Virus record (IMG/VR): IMGVR_UViG_3300045988_162372
Reading direction: 5' to 3' (one strand)
DNA length: 64,000 bases
Source: a virus
In this document: positions 3,661-64,000 of the stretch, in pieces
Layout of the letters: the number at the start of each line of letters is the position of its first letter
Numbering within the stretch: the first letter of the stretch is position 1
Notes under the pieces: model-generated
Databases searched by the model: none
Told to the model about the DNA's origin: nothing
What the model saw: the letters and a program-made list of their open reading frames with translations, nothing else
Translations under genes and position numbers: made by a program

Positions 3661-5922
3661 TCAACTAATGGTCTTGCTTTTATTATATGTATTATTTATA
3701 ATGTCCCATATCTTATCAAGATAACCCATTCTTCTGATTATCTTGTAAATAACATTTCCGCTTCCCATTTCACCAGAACGCTTAAGACTCTCTTTCCGTA
3801 TTCCTTTTATTTTATCCAATAGTTTTTTAACATTCTTACCTATCATATCTATCTTATGGTTATCTGTTTCTTTTTTTAGGTCTTTTTCGTAACTGTCTAT
3901 CAGTGTCATAAACTTAGCTGCCTGTTCTTTGACATAGACTTCATTTATCTTAGCATCATCAATGTTTTTTGGTTCTTTAATCCATTCATTCTTGTCAAGC
4001 GAATAGACACCACCCGCCTCTAATTTATCGTCTTTATCTTGAACATATAATTCAACAGGAAAACCGTATATTGTTAAATCTTCATGGTCTCGTTTCCATA
4101 GTTCCTTTTTACTGTTAAAATAATCTTCTACAAATTCTTTTTTCTTGTATATCTTGCTGAAGTCTATAATGATATGCACATCAATGTCAGAATATTTAGA
4201 CCAATTATAATTTGCAATAGAACCTGTAAGAATTATATCCTCTGGTTTCACCCATCTTACAGAAAGTTCGTCTATAAAATCATCAGCTATGTCAAGAAGT
4301 CTTAATCGTACCCGTGAATTAAGTTTATCATTAACCCATATCTTAGGATTAAGTTCATCTTGTACTTCAAACGATTTCAAACTTATGTCAGAGCTTGACA
4401 CTTCATTTATTCTATTAACTGATTCAAGCACCCCTTGTTGGCGTAGATAATCTTCTCCAACAGTCTGACGCAGTATTTGTAATATAACAACATCATCCAC
4501 CCTATATTCTCCGATTTGATTAAGCAGTTTGTTATGCTCCCCTATATAGTTTGCAAAATCATATATATCACCATTACATTTCTTTAATATATTGCTGAAT
4601 GTTTCTTGATTATACCAATCTAGTTCTTCAATTCTAAAATTCCTACCTTGAATACTAACAGAACTATCACGGGAGGTTACTTCGCCCCCATTCATGAATT
4701 CAAATGTATGATTTTCAAATTCAGATTTATCAACTTCAATAGAAAATACAACGCCTCTTGCAAAATTATCTTTGAAAGATGTGAAAAACCAGTTAACTCC
4801 ATAAGTCTCCCCAGTCCTTTTTCCATGACGAGCATTTATTTCTCCATCAAGCAATATATCTTCCAACGCAAATATATCAGTTCCATGATATAGTCTTATT
4901 TTTTGTGGAAGACTATCATAATTTTCAGGTTTCCATTCATTTATATGTTGCACAGATTCATTTGTCGGATTGGATAATATATTCATTATTTCTTGTTTTG
5001 TATGAAAAATGGGGTTTTCTTCTTTGTCAAACAAATAAACACCTTCAATAGCATTAGGCATTACAATACCCCTATACCCTATTTTTGGAAATTTTGTACC
5101 ATATCTCTTACTATTTTGCGCAATCTCGCCTTTAAATGCATTCCAATAAGGTTTGGAAGACGTATAAGGATCATCTTTTCCTGGATATGTAAATTCCTTA
5201 ACAAAGTCAAAGTCAAGTACAACTTTATTCTTATCTATATGGTCTGAATTAATTTTCAAAACCGCCATAGGTGATTTTTTATCATCATTATACATGCCAG
5301 CGTAAGATTTAGCAATAGCGAAATCAGATGTAAGGAAAACAAATCCGTCATTTTTTGCATTAAAAATTGAATTGTCTTGCATTTTTCTAAGACCTTTGGT
5401 TAAAATGCCATATAAATGCTTCATAACAGTACCATGATATAATGGATTGGCGATTTGGATTGTATGCGGATTTTTTACTGTATCATTAATTGTTACAGCC
5501 TTACCATTTACAATAATTTTATCAAATGCCTTTGATTGTTCACTTTGTAGGAATTGCTTAAATTCAGGTGATGCTGTTACATTATATGATGTATTTTCAA
5601 TATCTAAACTCAAGCCATCATCATCATAATCAACCATACCTATTATGACTTTGGGAAAACTAATGAAATAATCATATATTGCATTAATAACATCTCCACT
5701 ATTATGGAATTCATTTTTTAATGCCCCATCATTATAAAAGAAATGTTCTTTTACAGATGGAAAAGCATCGCATAATTCTTTAATCAAACGCATTAAAGTA
5801 TTACTATATCCGTCTTCCTCATTCAAAATATACACATTTCCTTTGAAGATGACTACCATATCATCAACATCCAAAGCATTGAAGTTACCATTTACATATC
5901 TTAATTCGCAAATATCAGCCAT
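3661..5922 (-). CDS. multidomain (polyvalent-type) protein: two ART-like LYHGT modules plus a C-terminal pol-beta-type nucleotidyltransferase
   Basis: Contains LYHGTVMKHLYG...GFVFLTSD and RLYHGTDIFALE...VNWFFTS. The C-terminus has TGSIANYNWSKYSDIDVHII, which fits the GS-x10-DxD NTase signature. Confidence 0.8.
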   Translation of the reverse strand: MADICELRYVNGNFNALDVDDMVVIFKGNVYILNEEDGYSNTLMRLIKELCDAFPSVKEHFFYNDGALKNEFHNSGDVINAIYDYFISFPKVIIGMVDYDDDGLSLDIENTSYNVTASPEFKQFLQSEQSKAFDKIIVNGKAVTINDTVKNPHTIQIANPLYHGTVMKHLYGILTKGLRKMQDNSIFNAKNDGFVFLTSDFAIAKSYAGMYNDDKKSPMAVLKINSDHIDKNKVVLDFDFVKEFTYPGKDDPYTSSKPYWNAFKGEIAQNSKRYGTKFPKIGYRGIVMPNAIEGVYLFDKEENPIFHTKQEIMNILSNPTNESVQHINEWKPENYDSLPQKIRLYHGTDIFALEDILLDGEINARHGKRTGETYGVNWFFTSFKDNFARGVVFSIEVDKSEFENHTFEFMNGGEVTSRDSSVSIQGRNFRIEELDWYNQETFSNILKKCNGDIYDFANYIGEHNKLLNQIGEYRVDDVVILQILRQTVGEDYLRQQGVLESVNRINEVSSSDISLKSFEVQDELNPKIWVNDKLNSRVRLRLLDIADDFIDELSVRWVKPEDIILTGSIANYNWSKYSDIDVHIIIDFSKIYKKKEFVEDYFNSKKELWKRDHEDLTIYGFPVELYVQDKDDKLEAGGVYSLDKNEWIKEPKNIDDAKINEVYVKEQAAKFMTLIDSYEKDLKKETDNHKIDMIGKNVKKLLDKIKGIRKESLKRSGEMGSGNVIYKIIRRMGYLDKIWDIINNTYNKSKTIS

Positions 5923-44447: not shown

Positions 44448-44535
44448 CATATTTTATTACTTAAAATTTTGATATTGCAAAGTATTATCGTATCTTTGCA
44501 ATGTTTTTAGAAAGAGAGAAAGATTTGTGGTGCTT
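44434..44535 (+). repeat. exact 12-nt direct repeat pair flanking the metK promoter
   Basis: tttgtggtgctt occurs at 44434-44445 (the last codons of the upstream gene) and again at 44524-44535. Confidence 0.8.
44468..44498 (+). promoter_or_regulatory. Bacteroides-type promoter of metK
   Basis: TTTG at 44468-44471, a 19-nt spacer, then TATCTTTG at 44491-44498. This leaves a leader of about 145 nt. Confidence 0.7.
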
Positions 44536-44648: not shown

Positions 44649-45824
44649 ATGGAAAAGAAAACGATTACAAGTGAATTTGTAAGTTATGGCCATCCTGACA
44701 AAATCGCAGACCAAATCGCCGATGCTATTCTTGATGAATATCTTAAAATGGATGAAAATACCCGTGCGGGTATTGAAGTAATGGTGAAAGATAATGTTGT
44801 TGTATTGGGTGGTGAGATTTCATCAAAAGCGGCAGTAAATTATGACACCATTGTACGGAATGTGTTTAATGACATTAAATTCCCTGACAATCATCATTTA
44901 AATCCTGACAATATCAAGATTATTAATTTGATTGGAAAACAATCACCTGAAATCCATCAAGGGGTTGATAAAAGTGAAACTATCATTGGGGCTGGCGACC
45001 AGGGATTTATGGTTGGTTATGCAAGCAATGAAACAGAGGTATTAATGCCTTTGGGATATTATATTGCTAAGAAGATTTGTCAATGTATTGCCAATTACAA
45101 AGCATTGCAGCTTGGCCCAGATACTAAATCACAAGTCATTGTAGATTATGATGAACATGGAAATGCTGAAATATCTTCCATCCTTGTTTCAACAATGCAT
45201 CAATGCAGTATTGAGAAAGTACGTGAAGTTGTAAAACAAATTATATTGACTAACCAAATGGGTCTTGAAACTGAATTGTTTAACAAATACATTTTGGAAA
45301 AGAATATAAGGATTGATATAAATCCTTGCGGAACTTGGAATATTGGAGGCCCAGTATCAGATTGTGGCGTGACAGGTAGAAAACTTGTTGTAGATAGTTA
45401 TGGCGGTTATTGTAACATAGGTGGCGGAAATATTTCTGGTAAAGATCTATCAAAAGTTGATAAATCTGCTGCTTATATGGCACGTTACCTTGCAAAGAAC
45501 ATAGTTGCATCGGGTATTTGTAATAAAGCTAAGGTTGAACTCTCTTATATGATTGGTATCCCAGAACCGTCTTCCATCAATATTGAAATGGATAAGAATC
45601 AAGAGTTTGTTGAATATTTGAAACAATGGATAAAGGCAAACATTGATTTGACACCGTATGGTATTATCACCCATTTTCATGGAGGATATCCTCGTAATTA
45701 TTATCTTTCCAAAAATGGTCACTACGGTGTGAATACGATTGGTAATATAAATCTATACAGAATGTATCCGTGGGAAAGTATAGACCAAGCAGATGCAATA
45801 CGTGATTATTTTAATAAAAAATAA
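44649..45824 (+). CDS. metK: S-adenosylmethionine synthetase
   Basis: Motifs seen: GHPDKIADQI, GAGDQGFMVGYA, GGPVSDCGVTGRKLVVDSYGG and GGGNISGKDLSKVDKSAAY. Confidence 0.95.
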   Translation: MEKKTITSEFVSYGHPDKIADQIADAILDEYLKMDENTRAGIEVMVKDNVVVLGGEISSKAAVNYDTIVRNVFNDIKFPDNHHLNPDNIKIINLIGKQSPEIHQGVDKSETIIGAGDQGFMVGYASNETEVLMPLGYYIAKKICQCIANYKALQLGPDTKSQVIVDYDEHGNAEISSILVSTMHQCSIEKVREVVKQIILTNQMGLETELFNKYILEKNIRIDINPCGTWNIGGPVSDCGVTGRKLVVDSYGGYCNIGGGNISGKDLSKVDKSAAYMARYLAKNIVASGICNKAKVELSYMIGIPEPSSINIEMDKNQEFVEYLKQWIKANIDLTPYGIITHFHGGYPRNYYLSKNGHYGVNTIGNINLYRMYPWESIDQADAIRDYFNKK

Positions 45825-46165: not shown

Positions 46166-46205
46166 ATTGTTTGTTATACTTATTATATATAATATTATAC
46201 AAATT

Positions 46206-48323
46206 ATGAATTTAGAAGAAACTATAAAAAGAATGGAGCTTCTATCCAAATATGATACCAAGAAAGCTCTGAATGAATGGGGAGAACCTGACTGTAAGGG
46301 GTGGCTTAATATTGGAGTTGTACCTGACAGCAATCCGTTTTTTGGAAGACGAGAAAAAGACGGTAATGATATGTACATTATGGTTAATCCTAATGCAGAA
46401 CAGATTGATGATATGTCCACGTTCCGTTATAGAAATGTTACATATAATACAAAACCAGATGGAACTGGTTTATCAAATAATTTACCTGTTAATGATTTAC
46501 GAAGAGTAAAGATTTATCCAGAATATCGTGACACCTATTATGGAGACCTATTTTTAGGAAAACGTAAGGGCGAACAAGGGGAGATTATGCATAAGGAATT
46601 CATGTCTAATCTTAACATTTCAGGTGATAAAGTTATTCTAAAACATGATAGCAGTGTCAAAATTACAGACGGTGTTATTAAGAAAGGAAAGACAAATAGT
46701 TATTCTAACAACAGTGATATTGGAATATATTTTTGGGGTAGCAAGAAAATAGGTAGTGACCCATCTAACGGTCAAACATATACCTATATTTGTACAGTTC
46801 CATTATCAGATGTTTATGATTTTGAAACAAATCTTGAACGATTCCCAAGTCTTGACCAAGCAATGCAAGAGCATAAATATTGCGCACAATATTGGAATAA
46901 AGACAAATCAAACGCAATTGTTGTAAATACATTTTCTCGAACACCTATTCAAGCGATTAGGGATAATACAAACGGAAAAGTTTACAATGCAAATTGGGAG
47001 GAAATAGATATGCAAGTTGAAAGTAAGAAACCGAAAGGCAATTTCATTAATGAATACAAACCTAATACCTGCAACAAGGCTGATTTAGTATCCATTAATG
47101 AAGTAAACGCTAAAAGTATGCTTCAACGTCACGGAGATAGTGGTTTTATTGTTATTTCTCCTTGCAGGGGATTTGCAGATTTCAAACTTGACCCTAACGA
47201 TCCACAATCTAAACAAAAATTGTCAGAAATCAATAACCAACGTGTACGTGAAATGATACAACAAATCAAACATAGTGGATATTCTTATACTCCTGTATAT
47301 GGCGGTTTTATTGAAAATGCTGGTACTGAAGATGAGGAAAATGTATATGAACGTTCATTTGTCATTTACAACAAAAGACGTGATGGTTCTGAAGGTGATA
47401 TAAAGAAACTGATTGATTTTGGACAAGCATTAGCACAGCAATACAATCAGGATAGCTTCTTGGTGAAAGCTCGTGGAGAGAAACCTAAATACATTACTCA
47501 AAACGGTGATGTTGATATGGAATTTAGTGGTAATACCTCTTTCAACGATTTCTCGCAAGAATATTTCACTGATTTACATAAGAATACAGATAAATATGCA
47601 AAGGATAATAATCGTAAGCCTACACGTTTCTCATACGTGGAAAGTTATATCAATCCTGCGCCCCAATGCTATTCAGAACGTCATATAAGAAGTTTGAATG
47701 GGGAAATATTTCTTACTGAAACCAGTCGCAGACAAAAGGCTCAACAAGCTGTTAACGGGAAACTATCTAACTTAAAAAGTTTTGCAATCCTTACATCAGA
47801 CAATCCAATGGGCAAGAAACTTTCTTCATCAGAAAATGCTTCTAATTATGAAAGTCTTATGAAAGATTTAAAACTTGGTAATTTCTTGTATTTTCCAGTA
47901 AAAGGTAAATATAATGATATTGAACATTCTGTTATTATCTACAATATTTCATTAGATGATGCAATTTATCTCGGCGATACATATAATCAGGAAAGTATTA
48001 TATATTGTATACCTAATTTGCAAAACAGTTCTGTACATTATGAGTATTGGGAAAGAAGCGCAGAGGGAAAACCTTTAAGAAAAACTATTGAAAGAGATGA
48101 ATATGTTGATGCAACTAACGACAAAGATATGTTCACCCAAATCAGTAGGAAATTCAAAATTAGAATACCATTTTTTGAAAATATCGAAAAGGTATGTACA
48201 TTTATTAAGAGTAGAATGAAAACAGTCAATAATGCAGAAAAGTTATTGAATGAATCTATGAGTAACAAGTATACTGGTAAACATAAAATGATTTGTAGGT
48301 ATAAGTTGTATACACAGAAGTAA
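46206..48323 (+). CDS. large multidomain hypothetical protein with an internal duplication
   Basis: The track ORF begins at 46167; I prefer the ATG at 46206 (MNLEETIKRMELL). Two related segments are ...VISPCRGF...YSYTPVYGGF...ERSFVIYN and ...FAILTSDNPMG...FLYFPVKGKY...EHSVIIYN. Confidence 0.75.
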   Translation: MNLEETIKRMELLSKYDTKKALNEWGEPDCKGWLNIGVVPDSNPFFGRREKDGNDMYIMVNPNAEQIDDMSTFRYRNVTYNTKPDGTGLSNNLPVNDLRRVKIYPEYRDTYYGDLFLGKRKGEQGEIMHKEFMSNLNISGDKVILKHDSSVKITDGVIKKGKTNSYSNNSDIGIYFWGSKKIGSDPSNGQTYTYICTVPLSDVYDFETNLERFPSLDQAMQEHKYCAQYWNKDKSNAIVVNTFSRTPIQAIRDNTNGKVYNANWEEIDMQVESKKPKGNFINEYKPNTCNKADLVSINEVNAKSMLQRHGDSGFIVISPCRGFADFKLDPNDPQSKQKLSEINNQRVREMIQQIKHSGYSYTPVYGGFIENAGTEDEENVYERSFVIYNKRRDGSEGDIKKLIDFGQALAQQYNQDSFLVKARGEKPKYITQNGDVDMEFSGNTSFNDFSQEYFTDLHKNTDKYAKDNNRKPTRFSYVESYINPAPQCYSERHIRSLNGEIFLTETSRRQKAQQAVNGKLSNLKSFAILTSDNPMGKKLSSSENASNYESLMKDLKLGNFLYFPVKGKYNDIEHSVIIYNISLDDAIYLGDTYNQESIIYCIPNLQNSSVHYEYWERSAEGKPLRKTIERDEYVDATNDKDMFTQISRKFKIRIPFFENIEKVCTFIKSRMKTVNNAEKLLNESMSNKYTGKHKMICRYKLYTQK

Positions 48324-56861: not shown

Positions 56862-57671
56862 TCATTTCTTAATACACTCATACATATTGTCAGAAACAAG
56901 GGAATAATCGCCGTTATTATCATAGGCTGATTTAACTTGATTAGGAGAAAACACAATATATTCATTGACCTTTCTCATATTACCATCAACCACATTATAG
57001 ATGATGATACCGTCACAACCTTTTGCCTTAGCTTCTTTTACAAAATCCTCAGCAATACCGCTGCCATTGCCATTCAAGTTGTCAAACCTTCTTCCTTTTG
57101 CATCAATTACAAACGGTTTCACAATCCTTGCGTAAAGTCTTAATATTCCACCCTCATAACTTCTGCTCAACCATCTTTTAACCCAATCAACTCTTGTGTA
57201 ATCAGCATTTGTTTCATCACCAGTGTCCGTATTGACAAGCATGTTGCTCATTTCATTAGAATAAGGATTTGAATATTTCCTCTCAATCTTGAACAAACCT
57301 GTGGAAGCCAAATCCTTAATGAGAGTATTCAAATCGTTAAAGTCATAATCCTTGTCCATAATAGCTTTAATCTTTGGTTCGATAACATTGCCCTTATCAA
57401 TAAATCTCTTGGATGAAGAATAATCAGAAGCCAGTCTCTTGTCATCAGTAAGGAAGATAAGGCTCGTGTCAAACGTGTCAAATGTATTTGGCGTTCCATG
57501 ATACACCTCCTTTGGAGAACCGTCGTCGTTCACCACCTTACTACCTTGAAACCATCTCCAAAACGCATCATTCTGTTCGTTTGATTCAAATATATTGTTT
57601 AAATAATGAGATTGTTCTTCAGTTATTTTGAATATTCTCTTGATTTTATTTCCTTTAACTGATTTATCCAT
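56862..57671 (-). CDS. ART-like protein with the N-terminal leader motif
   Basis: Contains RIFKITEEQSHYLNNIFE, then VYHGTPNTFDTFD and LIFLTDDKRLASDYS. Confidence 0.6.
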   Translation of the reverse strand: MDKSVKGNKIKRIFKITEEQSHYLNNIFESNEQNDAFWRWFQGSKVVNDDGSPKEVYHGTPNTFDTFDTSLIFLTDDKRLASDYSSSKRFIDKGNVIEPKIKAIMDKDYDFNDLNTLIKDLASTGLFKIERKYSNPYSNEMSNMLVNTDTGDETNADYTRVDWVKRWLSRSYEGGILRLYARIVKPFVIDAKGRRFDNLNGNGSGIAEDFVKEAKAKGCDGIIIYNVVDGNMRKVNEYIVFSPNQVKSAYDNNGDYSLVSDNMYECIKK

Positions 57672-58609: not shown

Positions 58610-59734
58610 TTAAGCCACAAGCATTCTGTATGCGTTGTCAAGTTTGCGCAAGTCAGTTCCGTCAGTCAGGCTTTCAAACTTGTCCTCATTCGTCTTGTAC
58701 TTCTTTTCGTTTGAGAAGAAAGTGGTCAATCCGTTGAGAAGCCACAACTTTGTTCCCCGATAGCTGTCCTGTCCAATACCGCTTTCGATAGTGTTGCGCA
58801 AGGCTATGATGCGGTTTTTCATTGTAGTGGAAATTTCGTCTACCTTATCAAGTTTGTAGTCTGCTTTTGCAAGTGCTTTGAGTTCTTCATTCTTCTTGTC
58901 ACCAAGAGTGATGGCAGCAGTAAACTTCATAACATAGTTGTCATCTACTTTGTCTGCACACAAGTTTAGCAAAGACTGCTTAAAAGATTCCTTGAAAGCC
59001 TTGTGTCGTGCTAAAATGTCGATGGCGTGTTTCATATTTTCTTGATTCCACTCAAGGCGTGAATTGACGTTTGCCGTATGCTTGTAAATAAGTTTGTTTG
59101 AAGCGGTTTTCAACGCCATGTTAAGGGTGTTCTGACAAATAACACGGATGGGGGTGAAGAGTACAGTCACTGCACCACTTCCATCATGTGTGTTGGTGAA
59201 AAGTATGTAGTCATTGATAGGGTCATACCCGTTGTCATTCAAGAAAATGTCTGAAGGCAACTTTGCAGTCACGTACATACGTTCACCGTCACCCAAAATA
59301 CCTGCCGTTTCGATAACTGCTTTGTCATAGCCTTCAACACCCGAAGCAAGCAAGTCAATGAACTCAAAAGCCTTAGAATTCTGTACTACACCATACTTAG
59401 AGCCTACCACGCCAAGCGTAAGGTTTCTATCTGTGCGTACCGTTGCCATGTGTGATTGGATAATCATATCACGGGTAAGTGTTGTGCCTACTGACGGCAT
59501 ACCTTCCATAATAGAGTGGTACAAAGAGTCTGGGATGCGGATAAGATGTTCCTTTTCCACTTGATAGTCTGCGCCTACTGCGTCAATAGCCTCCTTGATA
59601 GTCACGGGTGAAGAGAAGTTCTTGCATCCTTGAATACCCTGCCAAGCAATAGGTTTAGCTTCGGTTCTTACTGCCACTTGTGTTCCACTTACTGCGTTCA
59701 TAACTGCTGCTGCATTGTTCATTGCTATTTCCAT
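58610..59734 (-). CDS. DUF932-like (phage/plasmid-like protein TIGR03299 type)
   Basis: LGVVGSKYGVVQN, ETAGILGDGERMYVTAKL and NTHDGSGAVTVLFTPIRVICQNTL match the motifs I recall for DUF932. Confidence 0.8.
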   Translation of the reverse strand: MEIAMNNAAAVMNAVSGTQVAVRTEAKPIAWQGIQGCKNFSSPVTIKEAIDAVGADYQVEKEHLIRIPDSLYHSIMEGMPSVGTTLTRDMIIQSHMATVRTDRNLTLGVVGSKYGVVQNSKAFEFIDLLASGVEGYDKAVIETAGILGDGERMYVTAKLPSDIFLNDNGYDPINDYILFTNTHDGSGAVTVLFTPIRVICQNTLNMALKTASNKLIYKHTANVNSRLEWNQENMKHAIDILARHKAFKESFKQSLLNLCADKVDDNYVMKFTAAITLGDKKNEELKALAKADYKLDKVDEISTTMKNRIIALRNTIESGIGQDSYRGTKLWLLNGLTTFFSNEKKYKTNEDKFESLTDGTDLRKLDNAYRMLVA

Positions 59735-59789
59735 AATGATAATGTATTAAAATGTTTCTACTTATGTTGTCTATCTCTTTTTGACGTTG

Positions 59790-59821
59790 CAAAGATACTA
59801 CTTAATTTTTTATCCTGCAAA
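59790..59821 (-). promoter_or_regulatory. Bacteroides-type promoter (minus strand)
   Basis: caaagata at 59790-59797 and caaa at 59818-59821, with a 20-nt spacer. The upstream string atttttcaattagaattttt recurs at 60221 and 61428. Confidence 0.7.
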
Positions 59822-59846
59822 TTTTTCAATTAGAATTTTTGTACGA

Positions 59847-60149
59847 TTAACTTTCTTTAATGAATACTTCTTCTTTAATTTTCTCAACCTCTTTTGGATT
59901 TAAGGGTATGCTTGCGGACTTTACTATTTTGAAAAGGACTATCATCCGTTGTGTGCCCATGTTGTTTGTCCACTTGTCAAGCGTCAAGGTGTTTTTTGTT
60001 TGTTTCAAGACGGGCAGGTAGGATCTGTTCGCCAAGTCCTTTATATAAAGTTGTGCATCCATCATTGAGGAAAAACGACTCTTTACAAGTCCTGTTGTTA
60101 CGTTATTCTTTGTAATGTCATACCGAACTACTGAAATCATCTGTGCCAT
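59847..60149 (-). CDS. small hypothetical protein, paralog of 61063..61362
   Basis: FKIVKSASIPLNPKEVEKIKEE aligns with FKIIKSAYIPAPPKEVKEIQTK. The two proteins are about the same length. Confidence 0.65.
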   Translation of the reverse strand: MAQMISVVRYDITKNNVTTGLVKSRFSSMMDAQLYIKDLANRSYLPVLKQTKNTLTLDKWTNNMGTQRMIVLFKIVKSASIPLNPKEVEKIKEEVFIKES

Positions 60150-60189
60150 AATCCTTATATGTTTTATATGTTATTTCCTTAATTCGATG

Positions 60190-60220
60190 CAAAGGTAACG
60201 CTTTTCTTTGTGTCTACAAA
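60190..60220 (-). promoter_or_regulatory. Bacteroides-type promoter (minus strand)
   Basis: caaaggta at 60190-60197 and caaa at 60217-60220, with a 19-nt spacer. Confidence 0.7.
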
Positions 60221-60307
60221 ATTTTTCAGATAGAATTTTTAGCAGGATAAGATTTTTTTAATTGATTGATATTGAATTGCTAAATGAAGTTAAATAAACG
60301 TCTGAAA

Positions 60308-60339
60308 TTTGGCTATGTCCAGGAAAATGCTTACCTTTG
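60308..60339 (+). promoter_or_regulatory. Bacteroides-type promoter of sRNA copy A
   Basis: TTTG at 60308-60311, a 20-nt spacer, then TACCTTTG at 60332-60339. No ORF lies downstream. Confidence 0.65.
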
Positions 60340-60344
60340 TAGTG

Positions 60345-60468
60345 TTGAAAGAGATAAGGAGGTAAGGGTAAAACCTTAGAGTTTAGACTCCTTTGGAATT
60401 AATTTTTATTTGTTAATAGGTTTAAAAATAAAGCAACAAACCTTAACATTGGAATGTTGCTTTTGCTT
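60345..60468 (+). ncRNA. candidate small RNA, copy A (ends approximate)
   Basis: A promoter, a conserved core (TAGTGTTGAAAGAGATAAGG...) and a hairpin TAAGG-GTAAAA-CCTTA at 60363-60378, then CTCC and a terminator at 60429-60464. It has no coding potential. Confidence 0.55.
60429..60464. terminator. bidirectional terminator
   Basis: aaagcaaca/tgttgcttt stem with U-runs on both strands, between sRNA A (+) and gene 60473..60808 (-). Confidence 0.65.
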
Positions 60469-60472
60469 TATG

Positions 60473-60808
60473 TTACTTTGTTATGGATATTTTCATACGT
60501 CTAATTTTAGGGTCGTTCACGAAAGATAACATGGTATTCGTATATCTTTCGACTGCACCGACTTCATACAATTCTTGAGGGAAAGTCTTATTTGCATAAT
60601 CGTACAGTTGACTAACCCTTTGCAAACTATATTTGTGAAGTTCTGCATTTTTCCTGCAAACGGCTTTGATGTAGTTCAGTCTGAAAATCAAAGCCTCCCA
60701 ACTTCTTTCAAAAAGTATGTATTTTTTACTTCTCAATTCGGCAAGCTGCTTTTTATTGAGCTTATTGCGACTTGACTTCTTAATCTTATATGTTTTTACC
60801 AACTGCAT
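60473..60808 (-). CDS. small basic hypothetical protein
   Basis: 111-aa ORF with an ATG start; last gene of a three-gene operon. Confidence 0.6.
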   Translation of the reverse strand: MQLVKTYKIKKSSRNKLNKKQLAELRSKKYILFERSWEALIFRLNYIKAVCRKNAELHKYSLQRVSQLYDYANKTFPQELYEVGAVERYTNTMLSFVNDPKIRRMKISITK

Positions 60809-60828
60809 AATCTTTTTCCTCCTTTGTT

Positions 60829-61056
60829 TTATTTCGTTTCAAACACTACTTTGTTATCACCGTCACGAAGTTGTATCTTAAGATTGATACCTTTGTTAAG
60901 GTCAGCAAGTTCCTGCAATTTGCGTTTATTTTCGTCCGTTGCAGCCAAAAGCGTACAATATATCTTACGGGTGACAGGATAACCTTCGTTTATATCAAAG
61001 GCTGTAAACTTGTTCAGACCATCATACTTTGCATAAGTGAAAAATTCTTTGTTCAT
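60829..61056 (-). CDS. small hypothetical protein
   Basis: 75-aa ORF with an ATG start. Confidence 0.55.
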   Translation of the reverse strand: MNKEFFTYAKYDGLNKFTAFDINEGYPVTRKIYCTLLAATDENKRKLQELADLNKGINLKIQLRDGDNKVVFETK

Positions 61057-61062
61057 ATCTTT

Positions 61063-61362
61063 TTATTTAAGTTCGTCTTTTAATTTAGTTTGTATCTCTT
61101 TTACTTCTTTCGGTGGTGCGGGTATGTATGCCGATTTTATTATCTTAAAATACCATAACACTGAAGTGTCACTTGCAGAACGACAAGCAAGCAATCTGTT
61201 TTTCGTTTGTCTCAATATCTTTACATTATGCTTGTTAGCTGATTTTACAAACTTCTTAATACAGGTTTGTGCTTCTACCATAGTGAAACATAAACTTTTT
61301 TGTACATAGCTTGAAACATAGTCCTTTGCTATCTCATATCTCATAATTCTTATATATTCCAT
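61063..61362 (-). CDS. small hypothetical protein, paralog of 59847..60149
   Basis: See 59847..60149. Confidence 0.65.
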   Translation of the reverse strand: MEYIRIMRYEIAKDYVSSYVQKSLCFTMVEAQTCIKKFVKSANKHNVKILRQTKNRLLACRSASDTSVLWYFKIIKSAYIPAPPKEVKEIQTKLKDELK

Positions 61363-61395
61363 ATCTTTATTATTCCTATGTTTTTAATTACACTG

Positions 61396-61427
61396 CAAAG
61401 ATAGTGTTTTATTCTGATACATGCAAA
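61396..61427 (-). promoter_or_regulatory. Bacteroides-type promoter (minus strand)
   Basis: caaagata at 61396-61403 and caaa at 61424-61427, with a 20-nt spacer. Confidence 0.7.
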
Positions 61428-61444
61428 TTTTCACATAGAAATTT

Positions 61445-61557
61445 TCTATTAAAAATTGTTAATAGATTAAAGACATTTTAACTAATTTATATTAGTTCCA
61501 ACGGAGACAATACTTTAGAATTTTACTTCTACTTCTTTCAAACTATCTTTCTTTTGA
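61445..61557 (-). ncRNA. candidate small RNA, copy C (ends approximate, most diverged)
   Basis: The minus strand reads TATTGTCAAAAGAAAGATAG..., then the hairpin TAGAA-GTAAAA-TTCTA (61516-61531), then AAGTATTGTCTCC. It has no ORF. Confidence 0.5.
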
Positions 61558-61562
61558 CAATA

Positions 61563-61593
61563 CAAAGGTAGCGAAAAAATCTTCCGCTACCAA
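61563..61593 (-). promoter_or_regulatory. Bacteroides-type promoter of sRNA copy C
   Basis: caaaggta at 61563-61570 and caaa at 61590-61593, with a 19-nt spacer. Confidence 0.65.
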
Positions 61594-61616
61594 ATTATTT
61601 TAGTTAAACGATGTTA

Positions 61617-61805
61617 TTAACTTGTTAAAAGATGATAAGACGTTGTTCCGAAAGTTTTGTTTTCAATCCTGCACACTCCTGCCTTAATTGTTCCCCTATT
61701 TATTTCGCCTACCAAAAACCAATAATAATCTTCAGTTATTGCATTAGCCCTACTTGCAGGGCTGATATACTTTGCTTCGGGGTGTATGTTAAAATGTATT
61801 CCCAT
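61617..61805 (-). CDS. doubtful small ORF
   Basis: 62-aa ORF with an ATG start. A ggtagggg/cccctacc hairpin (61828-61850) precedes it. Confidence 0.35.
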   Translation of the reverse strand: MGIHFNIHPEAKYISPASRANAITEDYYWFLVGEINRGTIKAGVCRIENKTFGTTSYHLLTS

Positions 61806-61860
61806 AATGTTGCCTACTATGTTAATGGTAGGGGTTATTTTCCCCTACCATTTGTTTTAT

Positions 61861-62196
61861 TTATTCCATCATTCTATTTTGTATGTCTTCTAAGGCTGTA
61901 TTTCCGCTGTTTAATATAGCTCCTTCAATTATCAACCTCCTAAGTTCGATAGTTTGTTTTTCTCTATCCACCATACTATCTTTTACTTTAATGAAAAGAC
62001 CTCCTTTTTTATTTTTCTTAACTTGAATGCTTGCATCCTTGCCACAATCTTTGTTGTAGTATTGTTCGGCATATCGCTGTGCTTCCGTTATATTGTCAAA
62101 CACACACAATATAAAATTGCTTGTTTGCAACGTCTGAAATGTGTTATCACAAATTTCTGACTCATAACGGGCTACATACGTGACTTTCATTTCCAT
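61861..62196 (-). CDS. small hypothetical protein
   Basis: The track start 62247 (non-ATG) lies inside the -7 box. The ATG at 62196 gives MEMKVTYVARYE. Confidence 0.6.
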   Translation of the reverse strand: MEMKVTYVARYESEICDNTFQTLQTSNFILCVFDNITEAQRYAEQYYNKDCGKDASIQVKKNKKGGLFIKVKDSMVDREKQTIELRRLIIEGAILNSGNTALEDIQNRMME

Positions 62197-62244
62197 ATCA
62201 CTTTCAATTTTAATTGTTAGACTTGTTATTTCCTTTTGACGTTG

Positions 62245-62276
62245 CAAAGGTAATACTTTTCTTTTTATTATCCAAA
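62245..62276 (-). promoter_or_regulatory. Bacteroides-type promoter (minus strand)
   Basis: caaaggta at 62245-62252 and caaa at 62273-62276, with a 20-nt spacer. Confidence 0.7.
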
Positions 62277-62412
62277 AATTATATGAAAATAAACGTTAAT
62301 AAATTGTGAATAAATGTTAGTCTTAAAATAAGGCTTTCTGTGGCTTTATTCCTGCAAAGATAATGAAGTTATCCATTTGTATATGAAAGTCGCTCAGAAC
62401 GCAAAAGAATAG

Positions 62413-62450
62413 GCAAAAACAAAGCCTCCACGTTTCACAACGGGAAGGCT
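62413..62450 (-). terminator. intrinsic terminator (minus orientation)
   Basis: agcctccacgtt/aacgggaaggct forms a stem with 10 of 12 positions paired, followed by ttgttttt on the minus strand. Confidence 0.55.
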
Positions 62451-62489
62451 CTTTCATTATTAACCATAAAAACAAAATAGAATTTTTTT

Positions 62490-62957
62490 TTATGCCTTGT
62501 ATGGATAACCGCCTGTATACTTTTCCACTTCTACCATAACATTATCAAAGTAATCAAGCATTTTCTTGCAAAGGTCTTTTTCAGACTTAAACTTGCTTTT
62601 TCTGAACTTCTTTCCGCCTTCGTCCACATATACCTGCTGAATTGACTTCATAGCATAGTATTTGTACTTTTCACTTTGTTTGTCGGCTTCATTCAGATAG
62701 ACGTGCCCAAAGGAATGTATTTCTACCTTATTTTCCTTATGATTGACACAGAAACAAATGTAAACAGAATTCATATCAATTCCATGCGGATAGTCCTCTT
62801 TGTTAAGTGCGTCAAGCCGAACAAACTGCATATAAGGGCAAAGGCTGCTCGGTTTTTCCTCAACCATAACTTGCTTTACAAACTTGTTATCGCTTGCAAT
62901 TTTCTTAATCTCCTTTGCTACTTTGGCAAATACTTCGTTATAAACACTTGTTTCCAT
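62490..62957 (-). CDS. hypothetical protein
   Basis: The track start 62990 lies in the -7 box. The ATG at 62957 gives METSVYNEVFAKV. Confidence 0.65.
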   Translation of the reverse strand: METSVYNEVFAKVAKEIKKIASDNKFVKQVMVEEKPSSLCPYMQFVRLDALNKEDYPHGIDMNSVYICFCVNHKENKVEIHSFGHVYLNEADKQSEKYKYYAMKSIQQVYVDEGGKKFRKSKFKSEKDLCKKMLDYFDNVMVEVEKYTGGYPYKA

Positions 62958-62987
62958 ATTGTTGTATGTCTTATTGTTTTTACTTTG

Positions 62988-63019
62988 CAAAGGTAAGGAG
63001 AATTTTTCTCCCTACCAAA
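62988..63019 (-). promoter_or_regulatory. Bacteroides-type promoter (minus strand)
   Basis: caaaggta at 62988-62995 and caaa at 63016-63019, with a 20-nt spacer. The -33 context ctaccaaatttt is shared with 61586 and 63463. Confidence 0.7.
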
Positions 63020-63038
63020 TTTTTTGTATTAAAAAGTG

Positions 63039-63410
63039 TTAATCATCTTCATTTTCTTCTTGTTCTTCTCTTTCGTCTATTTCTCGTTCAAAAGCCATAA
63101 CTACATTCAGTAACTGAATTCTATCATAGCAATAAGAGCGCACTTTGTGTTCTGTTTCCATGTCTGTGCCGTTTAGTCCATCCATAAGGTAGCCACACAA
63201 AGTAATACCTATTTTTTCTCTTACAATGCCCGTAAGCATATATGTCCTGCCGTCATAGTCCATAAAAGTATTGTCCTCAGAAGGGTTATCCAAAGTAAGC
63301 ATACCGCCTACGCCGCCTAACAAATCAGTCAGGGTTGACTGAATGTTGTTTATAACACTTCTTGCGCTTTTTGCAAGGCTTACCAAAATGATGTCGTTGT
63401 ATTCTTTCAT
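63039..63410 (-). CDS. hypothetical protein with an acidic tail
   Basis: The track start 63440 lies in the -7 box. The ATG at 63410 gives MKEYNDIILVSLAK. Confidence 0.65.
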   Translation of the reverse strand: MKEYNDIILVSLAKSARSVINNIQSTLTDLLGGVGGMLTLDNPSEDNTFMDYDGRTYMLTGIVREKIGITLCGYLMDGLNGTDMETEHKVRSYCYDRIQLLNVVMAFEREIDEREEQEENEDD

Positions 63411-63437
63411 ATTTCTATCTGTTTTGATTTTGTACTG

Positions 63438-63469
63438 CAAAGGTAAGCAATTTATTTCATGCTACCAAA
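63438..63469 (-). promoter_or_regulatory. Bacteroides-type promoter (minus strand)
   Basis: caaaggta at 63438-63445 and caaa at 63466-63469, with a 20-nt spacer. Confidence 0.7.
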
Positions 63470-63543
63470 TTTTAAACCATTTCTTATACTTGATTAACAA
63501 AAACATCTCATTTTGTTAAATCCATGTTAAAAGAGGAAAAATG

Positions 63544-63575
63544 TTTGGATAATCTGGATTTTCTTTGTATCTTTG
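63544..63575 (+). promoter_or_regulatory. Bacteroides-type promoter of sRNA copy B
   Basis: TTTG at 63544-63547, a 20-nt spacer, then TATCTTTG at 63568-63575. Confidence 0.65.
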
Positions 63576-63580
63576 TAGTG

Positions 63581-63705
63581 TCAAAAGATAAGGGGGCAGG
63601 GGTAACACTCTGAAGTATAATCTCCAAAGGGTTTAAGAAGAATTTGTTAATATAGTTTAACATAATAAAAAATGTCCTACAAACTTTTTCAGTCTGTAGG
63701 ACTTA
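63581..63705 (+). ncRNA. candidate small RNA, copy B (ends approximate)
   Basis: Reads TAGTGTCAAAAGATAAGG..., then the hairpin CAGGG-GTAACA-CTCTG (63597-63612), then AAGTATAATCTCC and TTTGTTAATA, as in copy A. A hairpin follows at 63674-63702. Confidence 0.55.
63674..63702. terminator. hairpin terminator; the U-run is stronger on the minus strand
   Basis: gtcctaca/tgtaggac forms an 8-bp stem flanked by aaaaaat and ttataaaaaaaaa. Confidence 0.55.
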
Positions 63706-63756
63706 TAAAAAAAAATGTTAAATAATAATCTAAAAACTGATGACTTATGTTATTTG

Positions 63757-63912
63757 TTGGGCTTATCTCTTATCATACTTGCAGGGTTTTAATATATCTA
63801 AATTAAACGGGCTTATCACTTAATTAACGCCATTTAGGGCGGAGGCTTATTTCGTTCCATATTATTACACATTTTAATCTAATCTAACGGGTTGATATTT
63901 CGTGCAGGTTTT
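63757..63912. repeat. iteron-like short direct repeats
   Basis: gggcttatc occurs at 63760 and 63809, and aggcttatt at 63843. The strings gggcttatc..ttgcagggtttt (63760-63790) and gggttgata..gtgcaggttttt (63889-63912) look related. Confidence 0.5.
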
Positions 63913-64000
63913 TCCCCTAAACATAGGGAAATCATTGTCATTCATTGAATAAAAATTCTCCATCCGTTTGTTTAGTTTTTTAGCTTCCTTTTGCGCCCTT
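63874..64000 (-). CDS. possible C-terminal end of a gene that begins beyond the window
   Basis: The minus frame stays open from the window edge to TAA at 63874-63876 (...RAQKEAKKLNKRMENFYSMNDNDFPMFRGKTCTKYQPVRLD). It is too short to judge. Confidence 0.3.
   Translation of the reverse strand, partial: RAQKEAKKLNKRMENFYSMNDNDFPMFRGKTCTKYQPVRLD

Follow-up and report, generated by a model that had tools for sequence, protein, structure and literature searches.

The 64 kb stretch of viral DNA considered here (IMG/VR record IMGVR_UViG_3300045988_162372), which we call the window, contains three copies of a short non-coding element in which a host-type promoter is joined to a small hairpin followed by a conserved tail. 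An earlier note, made from the letters alone, had taken the three loci, 60308–60468 (+), 61445–61593 (−) and 63544–63705 (+), for a family of promoter-driven small RNAs; we refer to them as copies A, B and C (table 1). Each carries a −33 TTTG, a 20-nt spacer and a −7 TA(C/T)CTTTG, and the three can be aligned over ~110 nt. The stems are exactly those that the note had described, every position being paired, with a single G·U in the CAGGG/CTCTG stem of copy C. There is no plausible open reading frame (ORF) at the three loci, and a small ORF or leader peptide is ruled out by stops in every frame of the shared core. With a covariance model of the 53-nt core, made from 20 members of the family, the three copies score 58.7–61.4 bits; the next match in the 64 kb reaches 12.8 bits.

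What kind of DNA carries these copies? The window is part of a large phage, and the carriers of the RNA module are a clade of very large (jumbo) phages of Bacteroidales. The window proteins include tail-fibre repeats, a ClpB-like AAA+ protein, a UvrD helicase, thymidylate synthase and DUF932; ADP-ribosyltransferases, DNA methylases, an S-adenosylmethionine (SAM) synthetase and a SAM lyase-like domain are also encoded. The 64 kb contain no tRNA genes. Megablast of the element region against phage and plasmid collections gave no match; the window has no near relative among the deposited phages and plasmids. With the Bacteroidetes promoter consensus of PMC7366714, the window has 22 full promoters (TTTG-N17–21-TAnnTTTG) against 3.6 in shuffles, and nearly all of them precede genes. 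The covariance model finds no element in the first 60 kb, where 11 promoters without it head long operons. Small − strand genes that lack Pfam matches, most with a promoter of their own, fill the last 8 kb.

Table 1. Positions of the parts of the three window copies and of the signals adjoining them.
Feature	Position	Strand	Details
Copy A promoter	60308..60339	+	−33 TTTG 60308–60311, 20-nt spacer, −7 box TACCTTTG 60332–60339; from sequence and promoter scan
Copy A hairpin	60363..60378	+	stem TAAGG 60363–60367/CCTTA 60374–60378, loop GTAAAA 60368–60373; 58.7 bits, covariation, centroid fold
Copy A tail	60379..60391	+	GAGTTTAGACTCC; most deviant tail of the family; consensus RAGTATAGTCTCC
Copy A GTTAA	60412..60416	+	20 nt past tail
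Copy A bidirectional intrinsic terminator	60430..60469	both	9-bp stem, then UUUUGCUUU; on the − strand side, then TTTATTTTT
Copy B promoter	61563..61594	−	−33 61594–61591, −7 box 61570–61563
Terminator hairpin of upstream gene	61567..61591	−	inside the spacer of the copy B promoter
Copy B weak 5′ leader hairpin	61538..61557	−	UCAAA/UUUGA; degenerate form of the covarying 5′ hairpin of ‘long’ members
Copy B hairpin	61516..61531	−	stem TAGAA 61531–61527/TTCTA 61520–61516, loop GTAAAA; 61.4 bits
Copy B tail	61503..61515	−	AAGTATTGTCTCC
Copy B GTTAA	61478..61482	−	20 nt past tail
Second co-directional promoter	61396..61427	−	drives genes 61362→60473; −7 box ends 107 nt past copy B tail
Copy C promoter	63544..63575	+	−33 TTTG 63544–63547, −7 box TATCTTTG 63568–63575
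Copy C hairpin	63597..63612	+	stem CAGGG 63597–63601/CTCTG 63608–63612, one G·U, loop GTAACA; 58.9 bits; fold
Copy C tail	63613..63625	+	AAGTATAATCTCC
Copy C GTTAA	63646..63650	+	20 nt past tail
Hairpin after copy C	63674..63702	U-tract on − only	on the + strand, then UUAUAAAAAAA

The hairpin, its loop and its tail

Are the compensatory changes among the three stems kept in a wider sample? Pattern scans of IMG/VR returned 29 loci, on contigs of 23–380 kb; the first two collection patterns put no constraint on the stem, and in the third the three inner pairs were unconstrained. Among 185,579 GTDB species genomes the core pattern occurs on just four contigs (3–19 kb, one match each) of two rumen/caecum metagenome-assembled genomes (MAGs; Paludibacteraceae and Muribaculaceae). 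Two of the four contigs hold several copies detected by the model, so that they look like binned phage fragments. The covariance scan that the earlier note had proposed, run over all the collected DNA, found 99 copies, of which 84 are distinct; those found by the model alone in flanking DNA deviate at just 1–3 positions. Phage contigs carry at least 7–12 copies each within the stretches sampled, and one phage carries at least five different stems. A 216,649-bp IMG/VR contig that matches the window in blocks, at 94–98% identity, carries copies A and B together with two whose stems are new (CAAAG/CTTTG and CAAGA/TCTTG).

In the 84 distinct homologues all 420 of the 420 cells of the 5-bp stem are paired, and 143 cells, at four of the five pairs, show double-sided changes. 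When the 3′ partner was slid as a control, only 27–54% remained paired. RNAalifold recovers the same helix unaided and predicts no other. The stem exists in 25 versions; among 395 pairs in 79 copies there are ten G·U and no A·C, and the helix is therefore under selection as RNA, on the promoter strand. The pairing is not an artefact of selection, since the patterns left all stem positions or, in the third, the three inner pairs unconstrained, since 79 of 79 core matches collected by a regular expression without a pairing filter are fully paired, and since a search with the tail alone found the hairpin at 72 of 72 sites. We conclude that a promoter-fused structured RNA is firmly supported. The earlier note's claim of a selected RNA structure is borne out, as is that of a paralogous family of promoter-driven, non-coding, structured RNA elements.

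The element consists of a purine-rich leader, RGG, a 5-bp hairpin of free sequence and a tail; RGG, hairpin and tail make up a core of 32 nt. The loop is of the GURAMA type, its first four bases usually being GURA, a GNRA-type sequence. The 13-nt tail, RAGUAUAGUCUCC, is near-invariant, and the tails of the three window copies fit (G/A)AGT(A/T)T...CTCC. The next 20 nt are semi-conserved (RAYRY..., AT-rich) and not spacer-like, and a crRNA-like arrangement of a repeat and a 20-nt spacer was rejected on this ground. GUUAA, usually 20 nt after the tail, is kept at a fixed offset across 78 anchored copies and is invariant in 25 aligned tandem copies. In 23 ‘long’ variants a second covarying hairpin lies at the extreme 5′ end, as would be expected of a stabilised RNA. 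The version in copy B is degenerate; its counterpart in L001, a locus from a near-identical phage, is GUCAAA/UUUGAC, and other phages have unrelated complementary stems in its place. Of the shared core that the earlier note had drawn, the hairpin and the tail stood. The opening TA(G/T)TGT(T/C)(G/A)AAAGA did not: it is a general promoter or start-site consensus, and TAGTGTYRAAAGA is also found at mRNA promoters of the phage.

Does any other part of the RNA pair? Mutual information computed from −30 to +79 relative to the first stem base reveals no pair beyond the four variable stem pairs. On this result and that of RNAalifold, a pseudoknot between the loop and the 3′ flank, or any other long-range pair, was rejected. 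Duplexes between leader and tail are slightly weaker than those formed with shuffled leaders (mean z +0.44); leader–tail pairing is thus not selected, and we read the tail as single-stranded. An outer helix, AAGGAG/CUCCUU, is visible in copy A only, and was rejected because leader–tail pairing across the family falls below that of shuffled leaders.

Promoter coupling and downstream context

A −7 box lies 16–63 nt upstream of the stem in 79 of 79 unique copies (within 43 nt in 77 of them), as against 8.9% of random positions. A strict full promoter precedes 63 of the 79, as against 3.4% of random positions. That the distance from promoter to hairpin varies from 16 to 63 nt argues against an element of DNA geometry.

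What follows the tail? Two contexts were found. In the tandem context, which accounts for ~49 of the 75 assessable copies, copy B included, a complete co-directional second promoter follows, and then a gene. The second −7 box ends 104–107 nt after CUCC, with a second mode at 117–118 nt. The genes downstream fall into 30 unrelated clusters among 46, so the element is not tied to any one gene. No conserved hairpin lies between tail and second promoter in the tandem copies, so that these most likely form the 5′ ends of transcripts that extend farther. In the convergent context (~20 of 75 copies, or ~27%, copies A and C included) the terminator hairpin of a convergent gene stands 36–43 nt past the tail. 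On inspection of the folds, roughly half of these hairpins appear to have a U-tract in the element's own direction; that of copy A does, and that of copy C does not. Whatever the context, the module lies between genes, upstream of a gene promoter, and may face either way.

How do the three window copies fit these contexts? The hairpin at 60430–60469 is predicted to end both copy A and the convergent operon 61362→60473, and the product of 60308–60469 would be a discrete RNA of ~125 nt. The product of 63544–~63705 is probably an RNA of the same kind; the hairpin at 63674–63702 qualifies as a good terminator in one direction only, for the convergent − strand gene ending near 63876. The third locus, 61594–61478 (−), is most likely the 5′ portion of a transcript running on into the 61362→60473 operon.

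These assignments alter several claims of the earlier note. It had correctly seen two copies that share a downstream TTTGTTAATA, a following hairpin and a convergent orientation, and one copy that reads co-directionally toward the promoter of the 61063–61362 operon, but it had partly swapped the labels: the two are the + strand copies (60308 and 63544), and the one is the − strand copy, 61445–61593. Hairpin terminators had been assigned to two copies; that of 60308–60468 holds, and the hairpin after the 63544 copy has its U-tract on the − strand only. A discrete, terminated small RNA is clear for 60308–60468 only and does not describe most copies, ~49 of 75 having no conserved terminator. Most copies, 61445–61593 (−) included, are instead most likely 5′ parts of longer transcripts, the outcome that the note had named as telling against its small RNAs. 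Nor is antisense regulation of the flanking operons indicated: element and convergent gene overlap in no more than the terminator hairpin that they share, and the phage is not enriched in complements of the tail.

The region around the copies is a mosaic of cassettes. When 59727–63042 of the window is set against 1–2931 of L001, the breakpoints fall at promoters (61360, 62234 and 63042) and none falls inside the element. Gene 61063–61362 is missing from L001; 61819–62233 and everything beyond 63042 are swapped for unrelated small genes. Copies A and B sit within the blocks conserved between the two, and copy C and copy D of L001 sit at equivalent positions in swapped cassettes. Composite promoter–terminators occur on the − strand at 61567–61591, ~62992–63016 and ~63443–63466, each with a GC-containing hairpin inside the −33/−7 spacer. 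This hairpin stands directly before the TTTG of the −7 box and so probably terminates the upstream gene. Its stem covaries, being GGTAGCG/CGCTACC in the window and GGTAGTGAA/TTCACTACC in L001.

GTTAA and TTAAC words are concentrated ahead of −33 boxes (TTTAACATAAAA-N-TTTGG) and in GTTAA-N6–30-TTAAC pairs, both in the intergenic DNA of window 59800–64000 (e.g. 61603–61624, 63494–63526 and 63646–63661) and at all related loci. In the first 56 kb of the window GTTAA is scarcer than expected (171 vs 247). These words may be an UP-like element or the operator of some regulator. A miniature inverted-repeat transposable element bounded by TTAAC...GTTAA was considered and discarded: the upstream TTAAC is general to promoters, and the convergent copies either lack it or have it inverted. 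Another class of sequence upstream of promoters is ATCTGAAA(A/T)TTTG.

Other features of the window may be recorded here. A strong terminator-like hairpin at ~62417–62460 (−), AAAGAGCCUUCC...GGAGGCUUU plus a U-run, follows gene 62490–62990; beyond it come a −7-like box, TATCTTTG, at ~62345–62352 without a clear −33, ~60 nt of non-coding DNA and a promoter at 62276–62245. The 62300–62490 (−) region may be another short transcript; compared with Rfam it gives weak chance matches only. The promoter at 44468–44498 (+) is followed by an untranslated leader of ~150 nt (GCAATGTTTTTAGAAAGAGAGAAAG...) and a gene at 44649. Among 416 start regions (the window and the related loci L001–L033) a Shine–Dalgarno-like tetramer is present in 11% and a 5-mer in 5%, which fits Bacteroidetes hosts; very strong AGGAGG sites stand at a few small genes. 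Enzymes of NAD/ADP-ribose and RNA-end chemistry are dense in the window: a fusion of PARP, Tpt1 and nucleotidyltransferase (NTase), ART-PolyVal, a separate Tpt1/KptA, NADAR, NUDIX and PTH2. It further holds SAM synthetase, a 718-aa protein (SAM lyase-like plus DUF3293) and DNA methyltransferase domains (D12-class, N6_N4 and Dam). The ORFs of these groups lie at 3661–5922 (−), 56862–57671 (−) and 46167–48323 (+), and there are further ones to which no position is assigned.

Possible partners and modes of action

Does the RNA belong to a known family? Rfam 15 at gathering thresholds gave 0 matches over the 64 kb. Permissive scans returned matches at chance level only (≤30 bits over 4 kb, ≤18 bits for individual copies), below every gathering score. 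The element is thus neither FopS nor GibS, nor does it belong to a BTnc family, the ribozymes, the riboswitches or the catalogued CRISPR repeats. A full-text search of the literature found no description of it.

If the tail is single-stranded, with what might it pair? Complements of the tail in the window number 18 against 17.1 expected. In the 416 phage translation-start regions there are 12 sites at ≤−8 kcal/mol against 11.8 for shuffled tails, and five at ≤−10 kcal/mol against a shuffled mean of 2.1 and maximum of 7. An anti-Shine–Dalgarno-like seed directed at phage ribosome-binding sites was rejected, there being no enrichment over shuffled tails. Sites complementary to the tail are absent from 667 kb around Bacteroidales rrn operons, and pairing with rRNA or the rrn leader was dismissed because 120 Bacteroidales rrn loci have no conserved complement. 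Since no complement of the tail is enriched in these sets, a protein partner is favoured over an RNA partner.

Might the tail imitate a host signal? A boxA-like GAGUUCUUUGAAAGA (boxA being GUUCUUUGAAAGA) is shared by 106 Bacteroidales rrn leaders; the phage tail occurs in none of them, the element has no boxA, and the boxA-like words in the window are not located at the elements. Mimicry of host boxA was accordingly rejected, the tail being unrelated to it despite the similar layout. The rrn leaders themselves (L034–L153, ~150–300 nt upstream of 16S) run from a sigma-ABfr promoter through a variable stretch, which by inspection looks like a hairpin, to a purine run AAAGAAAGA, the boxA-like word and, farther on, AAGUAGUACAAG.

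What, then, might the element do? Our tentative preference, which we rate at somewhat below an even chance, is for an RNA that is expressed early and from many copies, is recognised by a protein and acts mainly in trans. The promoter, strong and of host type (sigma-ABfr), would place an RNA recognition element within the first 15–60 nt of the transcript, and this element would be the docking site for one conserved protein, phage-encoded or host. Many copies in the early region, which is rich in small unannotated genes, would provide a high dose of RNA, and this would either titrate the protein or serve to load it onto RNA. Only the first 60–80 nt would need to be transcribed, which would explain the intergenic sites, the use of either orientation and the varied sequels (terminator, convergent gene, or second promoter and gene). 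A stem of free sequence, a conserved loop, a near-invariant tail without selected pairing and no detectable RNA target together are the signature of a protein-recognition site on RNA. Action in trans is favoured by the free orientation, the high copy number, the absence from long operons and the 5′-terminal stabilising hairpins of some copies. Transcription, the protein partner and action in trans we infer. The evidence that the element is real is strong; the function offered here is a proposal made from sequence.

Several points weigh against this proposal. Start sites and 3′ ends are placed by consensus only, and the conservation of loop and tail is partly inflated by ascertainment, the collection patterns having required both. 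Some two-thirds of the copies have no conserved terminator, which is atypical of stand-alone small RNA (sRNA) families and fits a leader acting in cis equally well. The constant spacing of 104–107 nt to the next promoter is unexplained by a purely trans-acting RNA. Finally, the Pfam scan of the window ORFs gave no classical RNA-binding domain among the families listed, and no candidate partner protein.

The fixed spacing and the lack of terminators in most copies speak for a co-transcriptional tag acting in cis, comparable to lambda nut, rrn boxB–boxA or HIV TAR. A protein bound to the nascent hairpin and tail would modify RNA polymerase, for example by processive antitermination or protection from Rho, and transcripts from the element promoter would behave unlike those from the plain second promoter. 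The element is always in the first tens of nucleotides of the transcript, and it combines a variable-stem hairpin, whose loop usually starts GURA, with a near-invariant linear box, a layout resembling that of the Bacteroidales rrn leaders. About two-thirds of the copies are co-directional with genes and run into them without a terminator of their own. Cassettes end in hairpin terminators embedded in the next promoter, so that control of read-through has something to act on, and one copy per small operon would explain the copy number. However, ~27% of the copies point into the 3′ end of a convergent gene, where the sole product of antitermination would be antisense RNA. The element is missing from the window's long operons, the tail is unlike the boxA of the 106 host leaders, and no NusG-, N- or Q-like protein was recognised among the Pfam matches listed. 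We regard a cis tag, the main rival, as possible, on the unlikely side.

An unlikely and more speculative proposal is that the element is a universal 5′ tag, by which transcripts from some of the early promoters would be marked out for an enzyme or factor of the phage within a dedicated protein–RNA system. The NAD/ADP-ribose and RNA-end toolkit (ART-PolyVal, the PARP–Tpt1–NTase fusion, Tpt1/KptA, NADAR and NUDIX) would be one candidate, implying 5′-end modification or chemistry of the RNAylation type; alternatively, a new kind of elongation factor might be loaded.

A base-pairing sRNA family, in which the tail is the seed for a conserved host (or phage) mRNA and the copies supply dosage, is in our judgement quite unlikely. 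The promoter of its own and a conserved tail without selected intramolecular pairing would suit it, and copy A, copy D of L001 and several others have proper intrinsic terminators 36–43 nt past the tail. Multicopy sRNA families driven by sigma-ABfr do exist in Bacteroides, as FopS with its 14 copies illustrates (PMC11697453). But complements of the tail are not enriched in the window, the start regions or the rrn loci, host mRNAs lying outside this search; the loop is conserved no less than the tail, a feature that pairing through a seed alone would not require; and most copies lack a terminator.

It is very unlikely that the element works as DNA, whether as a PeSL-like recombination or regulatory cassette or as a DNA-hairpin promoter for a phage RNA polymerase, the RNA being incidental. 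Repeats of ~100–200 bp could be substrates for recombination (PMC2839356, PMC4122927), composite promoter–terminators are present, and near-identical phages have exchanged small cassettes with breakpoints at promoters. These breakpoints, however, spare the element, and copies A and B lie in conserved blocks. The G·U pairs without A·C indicate selection of one strand as RNA, and the hairpin, which is too weak for a terminator (5 bp, AU-rich, no U-tract), stands at varying distances past the start site. An RNA anti-CRISPR (Racr), a solitary repeat unit that would imitate a CRISPR repeat of the host and so sequester Cas proteins (PMC10651486), is exceedingly improbable: the phage-encoded, promoter-driven 32-nt core has the size and layout of many class 1 repeats and lies in a region with anti-defence-like genes, but in the 185,579 GTDB genomes it is limited to the four matches in two MAGs, no CRISPR array there carries it, Rfam gives no CRISPR direct-repeat match, and five or more different stems in one phage are unlike mimics of one repeat.

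Why should such an element matter? Hardly any annotation exists for the uncultivated jumbo phages that infect Bacteroidales of gut and rumen, and least of all for their intergenic DNA. The element defines in these phages a high-confidence class of structured RNA, with 84 distinct examples, consistent covariation, many copies per genome and always a host-type promoter. Its 32-nt core offers a bait for a putative RNA-binding factor, the family is a marker of early hyperplastic regions, and the element could serve as a promoter-plus-RNA-tag part for Bacteroides engineering. Should the partner of the proposed protein-recognition RNA prove to be a target of host takeover or anti-defence, or a new antitermination factor, a new regulatory principle would be added for the phylum Bacteroidota, whose signals for transcription and translation are unusual.

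Comparison with known systems

Which known systems does the element resemble? FopS/GibS and the BTnc020 group, the latter adjoining transposases and invertases, are multicopy sRNA families of Bacteroides (PMC11697453, PMC7366714), and FopS and the BTnc020 group are most likely the families to which the earlier note alluded. The likeness lies in the many paralogues, each non-coding, each after a canonical sigma-ABfr promoter (−33 TTTG, −7 TAnnTTTG) and each with a conserved single-stranded stretch near the 5′ end. Identity did not survive comparison: the phage element is not chromosomal, it finds no match in Rfam, and its sequence bears no evident relation to the FopS consensus given in PMC11697453. 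Further, it is composed of a covarying 5-bp hairpin and a 13-nt tail, and most copies have no Rho-independent terminator and run into a gene.

Lambda nut, the rrn leader (boxB hairpin plus boxA) and HK022 put are promoter-proximal RNA signals for antitermination. The phage element is likewise a promoter-proximal short hairpin with a conserved linear box, present in several copies per genome and probably recognised by protein as nascent RNA. Unlike nut and rrn, it has a tail unrelated to boxA GUUCUUUGAAAGA and a hexaloop rather than a pentaloop; a quarter of its copies point away from genes, and long operons do without it. We know of no N-like factor for it.

In the PeSLs of T4-type phages the stem-loop is a terminator within, overlapping or beside the promoter boxes (PMC2839356, PMC4122927). 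Like them, the element forms dozens of ~100-bp repeats with a strong host-type early promoter, in hyperplastic regions of small orphan genes whose cassettes are swapped between relatives; the copy B promoter, with its embedded terminator hairpin, is itself of this kind. Unlike them, the family hairpin is downstream of the predicted start and too weak to terminate, and its loop and tail are near-invariant, which points to specific RNA recognition. With Racrs (PMC10651486) the element has in common a phage-encoded, promoter-driven short RNA, a small hairpin and conserved flanks. It differs from them in that its stems vary within one phage and no matching CRISPR repeat exists in the 185,579 genomes or among the Rfam CRISPR direct repeats.

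No described family matching the element was found in Rfam or the literature. It shares traits with the Bacteroides sRNAs, the nut/boxA leaders and the PeSLs and fails a defining feature of each; we class it as a multicopy, promoter-associated regulatory RNA of phages.

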